Assembly: GCA_963785725.1 (NCBI GenBank)
Contig: CAWAWS010000024.1
Span: forward strand, 162,151 to 226,150
Reading direction: 5' to 3'
DNA from: an uncultured delta proteobacterium
GTDB taxonomy: Bacteria; Myxococcota_A; Polyangia; Palsa-1104
Length of the DNA: 64,000 bases
Shown: positions 18,351 through 25,390 of the stretch, piece by piece
Layout: the number at the start of each line of letters is the position of its first letter
Position numbering within the stretch: position 1 is the stretch's first letter
Notes under the pieces: model-generated
Databases searched by the model: none
What the model saw: the letters and a program-made list of their open reading frames with translations, nothing else
Told to the model about the DNA's origin: nothing
Position numbers and translations under genes: made by a program

Positions 18351-18779
18351 ATGGGTGCAAACTGGAGAGGGCGTTCGGCTTGGCTCGCGGCGGGCGTCCT
18401 CGTGCTCTTCGCGCGACCGTCGGGCAGCGCGCCGGCCGACGACGGCGTGCCGAGCGGAATGATCGCCTACTTCACCGGCGCCAACGGCTGTCCCAACGGC
18501 TGGACGGCGGCGACCGAGGCGGCCGGACGCATCGTGGTCGGCGTCACTGACGTCAACAACATCGGCCTCGGCACCGGCACGCCGCTCGGCGACCAAGAAG
18601 ATCGCGTGCACACGCACTCCTTCGCAGCGACGGCGTCGATCGACAACAAGAACATCGCGGCGGCCGGCGGCGGCAACGACTCGGCCGCCCAAGCCGGCGC
18701 GATCGCGACGGCCGGGATGACCGAAGAGGCGACGACCGGTCTGCCCTTTACGCAGCTCATCGTGTGCAAAAAGCCATGA
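18351..18779 (+). CDS. Secreted protein with one phage tail-collar-like domain
   Basis: Signal peptide; PSGMIAYF..CPNGW..GRIVVG..E.RVHTH..LPFTQLIVCKK. Confidence 0.65.
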   Translation: MGANWRGRSAWLAAGVLVLFARPSGSAPADDGVPSGMIAYFTGANGCPNGWTAATEAAGRIVVGVTDVNNIGLGTGTPLGDQEDRVHTHSFAATASIDNKNIAAAGGGNDSAAQAGAIATAGMTEEATTGLPFTQLIVCKKP

Positions 18780-19597
18780 AGCGACGACTCGTGCTCCTCC
18801 TCGCGCTCGCCGTGAGCGGCTGTAAATTCCACGCCGGTGGCCTCGACATGGCCGACGACGCCGGCGTCCCCGACGATCTCGCCGTCGCTGCCGCCAGCGA
18901 TCCCTTGCCCAAGAGCATCATCGAGCTGTTCCATGCGCAGGGCTGCCCGAGCGGCTGGGTCAGCTATCCCCTGGCCAAGGGGCGCACGATCGTCCCCGCG
19001 CCCGACGTCGACGGCGGCTCTGGCGACAGCTGGGGCGACCCGCTCGGCGACGGCGAAGACCGCGAGCACGGCCACGACGGCGGCGTCTTCACGAGCTCGC
19101 TCGGATCGACCTCGTTCGCGGGCATCGCCGGCGGCGGGCTCGGCGTCGGCAAGTCGGGCGACGTCACCGTCGCCGTCGCCGGGTCGAGCGATCACGCCGC
19201 GCTCCCGTATGTCGATCTGCTCGCGTGCAAGAAAGTCGCGAACCCGACGCCGGCGTCCTTGCCGCTGCCGACGGGGCTCCTGGGCTACTTCGAGTATCAA
19301 TGCCCGGCGGGTTGGAATCGCCCGTCGTCGCTGCAAGGGCGCTATCTCGTCGGCTTGCCGGCGGGCGGCGCGATCGGCGCGTCGTTCGGCGGCCCGTCGC
19401 TGGCGTCGGGCGAGGGGCGGACGCACACGCACAACCTGACCGGCACCTTGGCGACGACGGCCAAAGGCGTGGCGCTCGTCTCCGGCTGCTGCGCCGACGG
19501 CTACGCCAAGAATAGCCCGGTCACGTTCACCGGCACGACGCCGCCCGCCAGCGCCGCGCTGCCCTACCTACAACTGGTCGCGTGCGTGTCGAACTGA
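18776..19597 (+). CDS. Lipoprotein with two tandem tail-collar-like domains
   Basis: MKRRLVLLLALAVSGC lipobox; two CPxGW..GR..HxH..LPY..L.AC units; ATGA overlap with the upstream gene. Confidence 0.7.
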   Translation: MKRRLVLLLALAVSGCKFHAGGLDMADDAGVPDDLAVAAASDPLPKSIIELFHAQGCPSGWVSYPLAKGRTIVPAPDVDGGSGDSWGDPLGDGEDREHGHDGGVFTSSLGSTSFAGIAGGGLGVGKSGDVTVAVAGSSDHAALPYVDLLACKKVANPTPASLPLPTGLLGYFEYQCPAGWNRPSSLQGRYLVGLPAGGAIGASFGGPSLASGEGRTHTHNLTGTLATTAKGVALVSGCCADGYAKNSPVTFTGTTPPASAALPYLQLVACVSN

Positions 19598-19656: not shown

Positions 19657-19732
19657 GTGGCTGTAGCTCAGTCGGTAGAGCAGTGGATTGTGGATCCACG
19701 GGTCGCGGGTTCAAGCCCCGTCAGTCACCCCA
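19657..19732 (+). tRNA. tRNA-His (GTG)
   Basis: Acceptor GTGGCTG/CAGTCAC with G-1 and C73, anticodon arm GTGGA-TTGTGGA-TCCAC, GGTTCAA T-loop, encoded CCA. Confidence 0.97.
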
Positions 19733-19737
19733 TCATG

Positions 19738-19770
19738 AAGGCCCTAACCCACCGCGGTTAGGGCCTTTTT
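19738..19770 (+). terminator. Intrinsic terminator after tRNA-His
   Basis: AAGGCCCTAACC-CACCGC-GGTTAGGGCCTT followed by Ts. Confidence 0.85.
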
Positions 19771-21250: not shown

Positions 21251-21266
21251 CGGCACGCGCGCTGCA
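21251..21266 (+). promoter_or_regulatory. Putative sigma54 promoter of the lanthipeptide precursor
   Basis: CGGCAC-GCGCG-CTGCA (GG-N10-GC), ~45 bp upstream of the GTG start. Confidence 0.55.
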
Positions 21267-21311
21267 ATAACGTGCGCCACCCGCAATCGGGCAACCCCTA
21301 GGAGGCCAGAC

Positions 21312-21491
21312 GTGAAGAAGACGATCAGCAAACAGAAGCTCTCGCTCAACAAGGAAACGCTGAGCAAGCTCAACAACAACGAGATGACCCAGGTCAACGG
21401 TGGCATCGGCACGGTCGGCTTGGTCTGCCATCCGCGTCAGACGTTCGGCGCCGGCTGCGAAACGAACCGACCGCCCGGCAACTTGTGCTGA
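21312..21491 (+). CDS. Class I lanthipeptide-like precursor (59 aa, double-glycine leader)
   Basis: AGGAGG RBS then GTG; leader KKTISKQKLSLNKETLSKLNNNEMTQVNGG; core IGTVGLVCHPRQTFGAGCETNRPPGNLC; directly upstream of LanC. Confidence 0.88.
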   Translation: MKKTISKQKLSLNKETLSKLNNNEMTQVNGGIGTVGLVCHPRQTFGAGCETNRPPGNLC

Positions 21492-21496
21492 TCACG

Positions 21497-21537
21497 ACCG
21501 GGCCCCAAGGCGCAATCCTTGGGGCCCGGTTCTTTTT
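21497..21537 (+). terminator. Strong hairpin between precursor and lanC
   Basis: 14-bp stem ACCGGGCCCCAAGG/CCTTGGGGCCCGGT, 6-nt loop, then TCTTTTT. Confidence 0.8.
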
Positions 21538-21559
21538 CATCAACATCAGCGAGGAATCG

Positions 21560-22798
21560 ATGGCCAGGACGCGCGCGCGCTGGATGCCGATCGTCGACGG
21601 TCAAGCTGCCGCAGGCATCCGCCGCGTCGTGCTCGATATCGCCGACGTGCTGCGCGACTCGCGCAAGCACGCCGCGTTCCCCAACGGCGCCGCGGCGCGC
21701 GCGCTGTTCTTCGGTTATCTCGCCGACGCTTGGCCGGACGACGCGTGGAGCGGCCTCGCCGGCGCTTGCCTCGACGCCGCGATCAGCCAGATCAGCGACG
21801 AGGAGATGGCGCCGCTGTTGTTCAACGGCTTCGCCGGCACCGCCTGGGTCGTCGAGCACCTGCAGGGGCATCTGCTCGACTCCGACGACGCGGATCCGAA
21901 CGAGGCGATCGACGAAGCGCTGCTGGAGCTGACCGCGCGCTCGCGACCGCACGACACGAACGAGCTGATGTACGGCCTGGCCGGCCTCGGAGTGTACGCC
22001 TGGGAGCGACGGCATCGTCCGTCGGCGCGCGTTCTGATCGAGCAGGTCGTGGCGCGGCTCGACGAGCTCGCCGTGGCGCGCGACGGCGGCCGCACCTGGC
22101 TGACCCTGCCCGAGGCGCTCCACCCCGAGGTGCTACCGGATCACCCCGAAGGACGCATCACGCTGGGCACGGCGCACGGGGTGCCCGGAACGCTGGTGCT
22201 GCTGGCGCTGGCGTGCGAGTCCGGTATCGCCGTCGAGCGAGCGCGGCCGTTGCTCGAGGACGTCGTGCGCTGCCTGCTGGCGCAGCGCAGCGCCGGCGCG
22301 CTTTCGATCGTGCCGCGCTGGATTGATCTCGCGACCGGCGTCGCGCTGCCGTCGCGCGCCGCCTGGTGCTACGGCGATCCCGGCGCCGGCGCGGCGCTGC
22401 TGTGGGCCGCGCGCGCGGTCGGCGTGAACGCATGGGAGCAGGCGGCGCTCGAGATCATGGCGCGCGGTGCGGCGCATTCGCTCGACTCGTCGGGCGTGGT
22501 CGATGCCGGCATCTGCCACGGCGCCGCCGGATTGACGCACCTATTCAACCGCGCGTTTCAAGCCACCGGCAACACGTGCTTACGCCAGTCAGCGCTCACC
22601 TGGCTCGATCACACGCTCGCCTATCGGCGGCTCGGCGGAGCGTGCGCAGGTTTCTTGGCGCAGGGAGAGTCGGGCCTAGTCGAGGACGAGTCGCTGCTCA
22701 GCGGAATCGCCGGCATCGGCATGACGTTGCTCGCGGCGATCGCAGCCGTCGAGCCCGAGTGGGACCGCGTGTTCGCCTGCGCCGTCCCGCCGCGATGA
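21560..22798 (+). CDS. lanC: Lanthionine synthetase C (LanC) cyclase
   Basis: LFNGFAG, LMYGLAG, GTAHGVPG, AWCYGDPG, GICHGAAG, LLSGIAGIG, WD; GAGGA RBS. Confidence 0.92.
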   Translation: MARTRARWMPIVDGQAAAGIRRVVLDIADVLRDSRKHAAFPNGAAARALFFGYLADAWPDDAWSGLAGACLDAAISQISDEEMAPLLFNGFAGTAWVVEHLQGHLLDSDDADPNEAIDEALLELTARSRPHDTNELMYGLAGLGVYAWERRHRPSARVLIEQVVARLDELAVARDGGRTWLTLPEALHPEVLPDHPEGRITLGTAHGVPGTLVLLALACESGIAVERARPLLEDVVRCLLAQRSAGALSIVPRWIDLATGVALPSRAAWCYGDPGAGAALLWAARAVGVNAWEQAALEIMARGAAHSLDSSGVVDAGICHGAAGLTHLFNRAFQATGNTCLRQSALTWLDHTLAYRRLGGACAGFLAQGESGLVEDESLLSGIAGIGMTLLAAIAAVEPEWDRVFACAVPPR

Positions 22799-22814
22799 TG
22801 GCAGGTATTCGGTT

Positions 22815-22991
22815 GTGAAAACGCCGAGCCGCAAAGCTCACGCGCTGAGCGCCTATCTGGTGCGCTGGTTCGAGGTGCAGCAGGTGCTATTGCTGGTCGT
22901 GACGGCTGGCTTCATGGCGTTGCCTGTCGTCCTGGCCTCGCGCGGGATCAGCATGACGACGTGCTTGCTGGCGCTGACGCTAGGTGTGTAG
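22815..22991 (+). CDS. Small hydrophobic ORF (58 aa), possibly a truncated membrane protein
   Basis: GTG...TAG reading VKTPSRKAHALSAYLVRWFEVQQVLLLVVTAGFMALPVVLASRGISMTTCLLALTLGV. Confidence 0.4.
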   Translation: MKTPSRKAHALSAYLVRWFEVQQVLLLVVTAGFMALPVVLASRGISMTTCLLALTLGV

Positions 22992-23054: not shown

Positions 23055-23420
23055 GTAAGCGTTCGTCGAACGACGTCTCTGAGGGTGGCCCGAGGCGCCG
23101 AGGCGTTGCGGTTCGAGCTCAGGGAACCGTGTCGAGCGTAGCGAGGGAGGACGGACCGAGCGTAGCGCGACGATAGATATTCGCGTCGAGGCGTTGCTGC
23201 ACCTCGGGCCTCTCCAGTGTCCGACTCCAGTGCGCCGGCGTCAGCTCGAGTACGCGACTCTTCCGCCAGCTCGGCATCAGGCAGAACAAGTCGCGCAAGT
23301 AGCTCCACGGCTCGATGCCGTGCATCTGGCAGCTCGCCAAGAGCGACACGAAGGCCGCGTTGACTTCGCCGGTGTCGTCGTCGCCCACGAAGAGCCAGTT
23401 TTTCCGACCGACAGCCTCCT
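23055..23420 (-). mobile_element. IS66 remnant: TnpC C-terminus plus one terminal end
   Basis: AVGRKNWLFVG...SLLASCQMHGIEPWSYLRD...LTPAHW; GTAAGCGTTCG terminus at 23055 (IS66 ends begin GTAA). Confidence 0.85.
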
Positions 23421-24978: not shown

Positions 24979-25351
24979 GGCAACAGTAGACCATTGCCGA
25001 GGCTCGCCTTTCCGCGACTGCGATCACAGCAGGGCTAGCCGCGGCGGCAGCAGCGGCGAGTGCGAGGATTTCGCCAGCAAGCGCCCGAGCGCGCCCGCGA
25101 GTGTTCGGTTGGGCGATGGAACGGGCCGGCGCAGCGAGCCGAGGGTCCCGACTCCCGTCGGTGGCGGAGCACTTTGGGGCTCGAAAAAGTGCCACGGTTG
25201 ATGCCACGCGGGCCTGGATTTCAAGGTTTCGAAGCGGGTCGAAAGGGACAGAACTGGACCGGGGCTGGCAACGCAATCAACAGCAAAAAAACGAATAGAT
25301 ACGTCGCAAGCCAGCGTCGTGCCTCAGTTTGTCGTTGTCTGCCATTGACGA

Positions 25352-25390
25352 GTTCAAGCCCCGTCAGTCACCCCATCACGAAGGCCCTAA
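25352..25390 (+). repeat. att-like copy of the tRNA-His 3' end and terminator left arm
   Basis: GTTCAAGCCCCGTCAGTCACCCCATCACGAAGGCCCTAA, 38/39 identical to 19709-19747. Confidence 0.9.

Follow-up and report, generated by a model that had tools for sequence, protein, structure and literature searches.

The window, the whole 64-kb stretch of DNA analysed here, lies on contig C24 of the host genome G000, which is 88% complete. It holds a two-gene cassette, composed of a lanthipeptide precursor gene (lanA) and a stand-alone cyclase gene (lanC), within a small islet at a tRNA-His gene (Table 1).

Table 1. Features of the lanA-lanC cassette and its islet, in window coordinates
Feature	Position	Strand	Basis or remark
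tRNA-His gene, islet insertion site	19657..19732	+	ARAGORN
Left att-like direct repeat (tRNA 3′ end and flank)	19706..19747	+	42 nt, 95% identical to 25349-25390
Predicted sigma54-like promoter motif, GGC-N7-YTGCA	21252..21266	+	sequence; sigma54-type consensus
lanA ribosome-binding site, AGGAGG	21300..21305	+	sequence; six bases 5′ of GTG
lanA precursor, 59 aa	21312..21491	+	NF038153 match; residue count
lanA parts: leader, 31 aa (LxLxKETL...GG); core, 28 aa	21312-21404; 21405-21488	+	sequence
Terminator- or attenuator-like hairpin and T run, between lanA and lanC	21496..21538	+	folding
lanC, class I-type cyclase, 412 aa	21560..22798	+	PF05147, motifs, structure model
58-aa ORF, probably no gene, outside the system	22815..22991	+	no family match; indels
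IS66 fragment, transposase C-terminal end only	23057..23418	-	PF13817; matches other copies in the genome
Right att-like direct repeat, islet end	25349..25390	+	repeat comparison

The precursor gene and its surroundings

lanA starts with GTG and is nested within a 134-aa ORF call, which was rejected as a form of the gene because it has no ribosome-binding site and the leader HMM begins at the GTG. An earlier note on this DNA had proposed that a 59-aa peptide with a Gly-Gly leader and a strong ribosome-binding site was concealed in the longer call, and this is borne out, the peptide scoring 39.8 bits against the class I lanthipeptide leader model NF038153 (cut-off 22). Following the Gly-Gly, the core has Thr at positions 3, 13 and 20, Cys at 8, 18 and 28 and zero Ser, the three-Thr, three-Cys composition that had been read from it before. 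lanA therefore combines the class I leader and the Ser/Thr-plus-Cys core of a class I precursor. A protein database search for homologues of the precursor returned solely lanA itself.

The terminator-like hairpin that had been described 3′ of the precursor is well supported by folding: its stem (21496-21531) has 15 pairs and is accompanied by a T run, its z score is -4.2 and 0 of 200 shuffles were equally stable. The motif upstream of lanA, which we take to be sigma54-type from its consensus, agrees with the promoter suggested earlier and stands as a prediction; a scan that covers only sigma70 promoters found none 5′ of lanA. Downstream of lanC, the 58-aa ORF had no match in the family scan and contains four of the indels listed in a related sequencing-run contig. 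It is therefore probably not a gene, and was also discarded as a candidate immunity gene.

The cyclase LanC

LanC scores 130 bits against PF05147. The earlier note had considered it to retain GxAHG, WCYG and CHG, and the 412-aa protein indeed contains GTAHG, WCYG and ICHG; a 437-aa ORF call was rejected as the form of the gene because it has no ribosome-binding site and homologues begin near 21560. The residues kept are H206, R266, C270, Y271, C319 and H320, giving the Cys-Cys-His zinc ligands (C270, C319, H320) and the catalytic His (H206) of a stand-alone LanC. Scores against the class II-IV models TIGR03897, NF038150 and NF038151 fall far below their cut-offs, and this is a stand-alone protein rather than a cyclase fused to a dehydratase or kinase-lyase as in those classes. 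Bacterial LanC proteins are described as having Tyr after the first zinc-binding Cys, where LanCL proteins have His (PMC9934072), and Y271 places C24 LanC with the bacterial type. Moreover, the predicted structure (pLDDT 89) is most similar in fold to MadC (8BYK, TM 0.82), followed by NisC (2G02, 0.73) and LanCL2 (0.67), LanCL proteins reaching at most 0.67. One catalytic position, on which the earlier note is silent, departs from the family: E135 occupies a conserved Asp site, at which 86 of 88 homologues have Asp, one Glu and one Thr. Through the MadC alignment E135 is equated with NisC Asp141, a residue described as important for acid-base catalysis (PMC9889658). A single-protein search for LanC loci gave 4 distant Paenibacillus loci alone in genome contigs and zero in metagenomes.

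The tRNA-His islet and its history

The cassette sits inside a 5.64-kb islet bounded by the tRNA-His direct repeats, a setting that the earlier note does not mention. Among the eight islet ORFs scanned the only matches were to LanC and the IS66 C-terminal domain, and there was no integrase. The IS66 fragment begins ~260 nt past the lanC stop. Neither the islet nor the window gave a lanB remnant with a profile built from the LanBs of seven relatives. We compared the locus with sequencing runs X1 and X2, leaving out X3-X5, which had small shares. An X2 contig at ~95% identity tracks the window over 22484-22983, to 185 nt past lanC, and then diverges before IS66; another X2 contig links lanA to lanC (21275-22458) and an X1 contig covers 21168-21591. 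These X1 and X2 contigs (~95-98% identity) retain lanA-lanC, and the indels listed all fall outside both coding frames, there being 14 further ones beyond that list. Taken together, the distance of the IS element, the lack of a lanB remnant and the point at which the X2 contig diverges speak against the suggestion that the cluster was truncated by IS66, at least in its simple form, and we rejected a cut by IS66 at the end of lanC. Loss of a lanB while the islet eroded may still be the origin of the cassette, and such an origin by deletion is compatible with a present function in trans.

In three congeners (G002, G003 and G004) the 8-9 kb after tRNA-His are free of islet DNA and of lanA, lanB and lanC, and G001 gave no islet match by BLAST. 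On the other side of the tRNA, at 18351-19597 of the window, two adjacent ORFs (142 and 277 aa) lie between bcp and tRNA-His; similar segments recur in them, and they matched no family. In the congeners bcp adjoins the tRNA directly, without these two ORFs.

Lanthipeptide genes elsewhere in the host genome

The surroundings of the cassette had been reported to be free of a dehydratase, any other lanthipeptide synthetase and a C39 transporter, and this extends to the contig, for there is no PF04738, PF14028 or PF03412 match on C24 and no second LanC-like match. No lanB thus lies within seven genes of lanC, the spacing by which class I clusters are mined. A LanM, LanKC or HopA1 partner for the cassette was likewise discarded. 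The HopA1-type lyase PF17914, which we take to be linked to class V lanthipeptides, was not found in G000 at its 88% completeness, and the cassette does not qualify as class V.

A search of the rest of the genome for lanB, as the earlier note had advised, located the LanB Pfam models PF04738 and PF14028 in two places, C47 and C26. The single full-type class I LanB is found on contig C47, in a lanA-lanA-lanC-lanB operon. G000 has three LanC-like matches, all stand-alone (C24, C39 and C47) and 43-48% identical, seven precursors with the same leader family and one C39-peptidase ABC exporter, on contig C26 and unlinked to the cassette. The solo lanC of C39 (549082-550359, L012) has intact motifs; a one-Cys precursor on that contig (555756-555921) has the same promoter-like motif and lies 5.4 kb upstream of lanC, past sulfate-activation and thioredoxin-like genes. 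The two precursors on C33 adjoin kinase or WD40-type genes, and at least two of the seven precursors, those beside such genes, may belong to another system. Also on C33 (323575-325058), a same-leader precursor lies immediately 5′ of an unassigned 429-aa protein.

The C47 LanB aligns over its full length to the LanBs of relatives at 52-63% identity, spread over three frames, and contains two frameshifts as assembled. Its glutamylation and elimination motifs, assigned after those of NisB, are kept. rpoB of G000 (C6:184843-188895) also shows several frame changes, read from HMM pieces and GC3 frame changes, with rpoB not found in G003 or G004 by way of comparison. The assembly therefore contains indel errors, which calls for caution over its other broken genes, and since rpoB is broken too the frameshifts of the C47 LanB are probably assembly errors. 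Among orthologues at >=55% identity 3 of 21 are frame-shifted in G000, or 0.11 per kb, at which rate two errors in the 3.25-kb lanB have P ~0.05, a point against assembly error. In its favour, a contig at ~87% identity differs by a net one base close to the first break; no listed piece spans the second. The operon has a hairpin 5′ of its lanC similar to that of the cassette, and its own precursors have one Cys each. When the lanA leader (residues 1-35) was modelled together with the putative leader-binding region of the C47 LanB, the complex scored 0.31 against a mark of 0.32, a result that we weigh on neither side.

The promoter-like motif appears to tie C24 lanA to the C47 operon. GGC-N7-YTGCA stands 87-95 nt ahead of the leader motif in four of the seven G000 precursor genes, namely those of C24, C39 and C8 and the first of C47; of the three without it, one is second in its operon and two are on C33. 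Its background frequency is 0.27% per 20-nt window, although the odds derived from this are overstated as the motif was fixed after the sites had been seen. At a like distance it precedes 1 of 13 precursors from relatives and 0 of 50 from metagenomes.

The second LanB-like match is a divergent 886-aa protein on C26 (86222-88879; L013:8223-10880) with both LanB Pfam domains and some of the motifs. It is conceivable that a dehydratase other than that of C47 serves the cassette in trans, being either this protein or a LanB missing from the assembly, the genome being 88% complete, but we regard this as improbable. Against the class I LanB profile of the relatives the C26 protein scores 143 bits and the main piece of the C47 LanB 1068; no precursor or LanC lies near it, and weaker PF14028 matches of its kind are common across the class, occurring in many relatives without cassette-type LanC. 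Moreover, the shared promoter motif links C24 lanA with the C47 operon instead.

Recurrence in relatives and metagenomes

Cassette-type LanC was found in 8 of the 81 genomes searched, which are kin and not independent samples. Seven of the eight also have a full-type LanB; in the remaining genome, G010, the divergent LanB type alone is present, and the LanC there is without WCYG, CHG and the zinc ligands. Five of the other 73 genomes have full-type LanB, and one of these five has a lanC overlooked by the search. Given that the PF05147 and single-protein searches missed the lanC adjacent to lanB in G036, the LanC counts are lower bounds. G049 and G015 each contain one lanA-lanC pair that is LanB-free for ~8 kb in either direction. 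The two lanC and the single lanB of G003 (99% complete) are spread over three separate contigs, each flanked by other genes, while G004 and G051 have linked clusters. G015 has 5 LanC and 2 LanB, and its same-leader precursors, dispersed over loci L135-L147, number at least 20; many of their cores are Thr/Cys-rich and they often adjoin Ser/Thr kinase and PD40 or WD40 genes. A hidden lanB-lanC linkage is possible in G049, G011 and G015, as LanB genes there (one in G015) are at contig ends. A wider sample of the phylum had cassette-type LanC in 2 of 300 other genomes, which says little since just 6 candidates were scored per genome.

Metagenomic loci were drawn from the best 80 of 576, and the LanCs scored are 37-47% identical to C24 LanC, with near-duplicates included. 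A linked LanB is carried by 33 of these 80. Where at least 2 kb is available on both sides (27 loci), 18 have LanB and 9 do not, and four of the nine LanB-free loci have a precursor; where at least 4 kb is available (18 loci) the split is 12 to 6. The arrangement of precursor and LanC without LanB, for which the earlier note had proposed a survey of neighbourhoods, therefore recurs, both as the pairs of G049 and G015 and as nine of the 27 long-flank loci among the best 80 of 576, and it is not the case that homologues always have lanB beside lanC. In a quick tree of 89 proteins, 15 LanCs form a clade (SH-aLRT 99) with no LanB on any locus, ten of which have at least 1 kb on both sides, and with all catalytic motifs kept. 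C24 LanC itself is on a long unplaced branch, its nearest identity being 47%.

Several other arrangements were seen among these loci. A conserved lanC-lanA family (L055, L063, L073, L074, L078, L090 and L117) has a near-constant Cys-rich core at LanB-free loci, and at the sister loci L082, L101, L111, L114 and L122 lanC stands alone amid housekeeping genes. Conversely, full-type LanB occurs at loci without lanC in G003 (C118, L037), G002 (C4, L054), G019 (C75, L148), G020 (C58, L149) and G033 (L150, L151). Those of G003 and G002 are accompanied by a kinase-WD40 gene, one-Cys precursors and an unannotated 400-aa protein, and that of G019 by Cys-free precursors and a C39 exporter; such loci possibly perform dehydration only or other chemistry. 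At L036:4661-8921 (G003:C84) a precursor is followed by an M16 peptidase pair and then a convergent lanC, M16B pairs being known as lanthipeptide proteases (PMC8960859). Lastly, an erythromycin-esterase-family gene lies directly 5′ of a LanB-free lanC at two unrelated loci (L035:3-1019 and L078:6661-7944).

Solo lanC genes at conserved sites amid housekeeping genes, together with the 1392 LanC-like proteins without a nearby dehydratase that one survey left unclassified (PMC7268733), would fit a LanC that acts without any LanB, for example by adding thiols to dehydro residues made otherwise, as in eukaryotic LanCL. We consider this the least probable explanation of the cassette, and the LanC-only modification system offered as an option in the earlier note is disfavoured. 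lanA has a leader of the class I family, Tyr and not the LanCL His follows the first zinc Cys, and the fold is nearer to MadC and NisC; in addition, no HopA1-type lyase was found in the 88%-complete G000, no other dehydrating enzyme family was found among the scanned neighbours, and in the sole genome of the eight without full-type LanB the zinc ligands of LanC are missing.

A cassette likely served in trans

We favour, with a probability of about 0.58, the reading that the lanA-lanC cassette is a satellite on which the C47 LanB acts in trans, likely yielding three methyllanthionine rings. A satellite of this kind was one of three options in the earlier note, and it gains support from the unlinked class I LanB, the shared leader family, the shared promoter motif and the recurring layout. 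LanB glutamylates Ser/Thr and eliminates the glutamate, after which LanC adds Cys (PMC7268733); both enzymes are described as leader-guided (PMC12328550), and formation of a LanB-LanC complex as not required for activity (PMC9889658). On this basis, a sigma54-type promoter common to the C47 operon would drive lanA, with the hairpin reducing read-through into lanC. The C47 LanB would then bind the LxLxKETL leader and convert Thr3, Thr13 and Thr20 to dehydrobutyrine via glutamyl-tRNA, and C24 LanC would add Cys8, Cys18 and Cys28. The simplest outcome would be three separate methyllanthionine rings, pairing Thr3-Cys8, Thr13-Cys18 and Thr20-Cys28, other pairings being possible; three non-overlapping rings are a plausible guess. 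Three dehydrations and ring closure would take the computed core mass from 2896.39 to 2842.36 Da. Finally, the unlinked C39-peptidase ABC exporter of C26 would cleave at the Gly-Gly and export the product. Thr20, between Glu and Asn, is in a poor dehydration context, which counts against this scheme.

The main rival is that the cassette is an eroded remnant of a once-complete cluster and is no longer processed, its own lanB having been lost and the C47 LanB being broken or unable to accept the peptide, or LanC being crippled. This we judge less likely. For the remnant and against action in trans, E135 replaces the Asp of 86/88 homologues, two thirds of the long-flank homologous loci (18/27, from the best 80 of 576) have a linked LanB, and the islet is eroded, with IS66 as a fragment only and no integrase match. 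The sole full-type LanB is broken twice as assembled. The remnant would further be consistent with the long, unplaced branch of C24 LanC and with the tRNA-His sites of three congeners, where the islet is absent, whilst the in-trans reading would be weakened by a promoter motif picked post hoc and rare in relatives and metagenomes, and by the single Cys of each of the C47 operon's own precursors. However, the lanA and lanC frames, the ribosome-binding site, the hairpin and the promoter-like motif are all intact amid decayed islet DNA, neither islet nor window has a lanB remnant, and the ~95-98% identical X1 and X2 contigs keep lanA-lanC, with those indels that are listed falling outside both frames. 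Moreover, the 15-member clade without a linked LanB shows LanCs that retain all catalytic motifs.

Relation to known systems

The cassette resembles class I nisin-type clusters (NisC, MadC, NF038153) in its separate LanC with zinc ligands and catalytic His, its class I leader, its Thr/Cys core and the hairpin 3′ of lanA. It differs in that lanB, exporter and protease are unlinked, that the genome has three LanC per one LanB, that Glu stands at the conserved Asp and that the cassette lies in a tRNA islet. The prochlorosins and Synechococcus SyncM, of class II, likewise have many shared-leader precursors, many of them far from a single modifying enzyme (PMC7268733), SyncM serving 79 precursors (PMC12328550). 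There, a single bifunctional LanM is used and precursors alone are dispersed, whereas in the cassette the two steps are divided between enzymes, with a cyclase accompanying the precursor. Unclustered lanthipeptide proteases are a further likeness, as a maturation enzyme is coded outside the cluster and about a third of LanC regions are given as without a protease (PMC8960859); in those systems the missing part is the protease, here it is the class-defining dehydratase.

LanC without a nearby LanB has been counted before (PMC7268733, PMC3091789, PMC10352776). In Microscilla marina one pair among several LanB and LanC is linked (PMC3091789), and class I mining with the rule of lanB within seven genes of lanC left the 1392 LanC-like proteins unexplained (PMC7268733). 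Such stand-alone LanCs, including those of Bacteroidales (PMC10352776), are set aside or are without zinc motifs, in contrast to C24 LanC, which keeps them and has a precursor and a candidate LanB partner. Our literature search, which took in few subscription journals, found no paper in which a lanA-lanC cassette is served by a class I LanB encoded elsewhere. Both stand-alone LanC genes and the dispersal of class II precursors have been published; what is new here is the organisation, the chemistry being expected to be known.

More tentatively, these genes may form a modular class I network, in which one shared dehydratase would serve precursors genome-wide in response to a single sigma54 signal and mobile cassettes of precursor and cyclase would plug in, each cyclase supplying the ring pattern of its own peptide. 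If cassettes of this kind are served in trans, a share of the unexplained LanC pool would represent class I chemistry of the ordinary kind, its products so far overlooked. Having a single LanB alongside three divergent LanCs, the genome would offer a natural test of whether cyclase or core sequence sets the ring pattern, and the C47 LanB would be a candidate tolerant dehydratase for peptide engineering.
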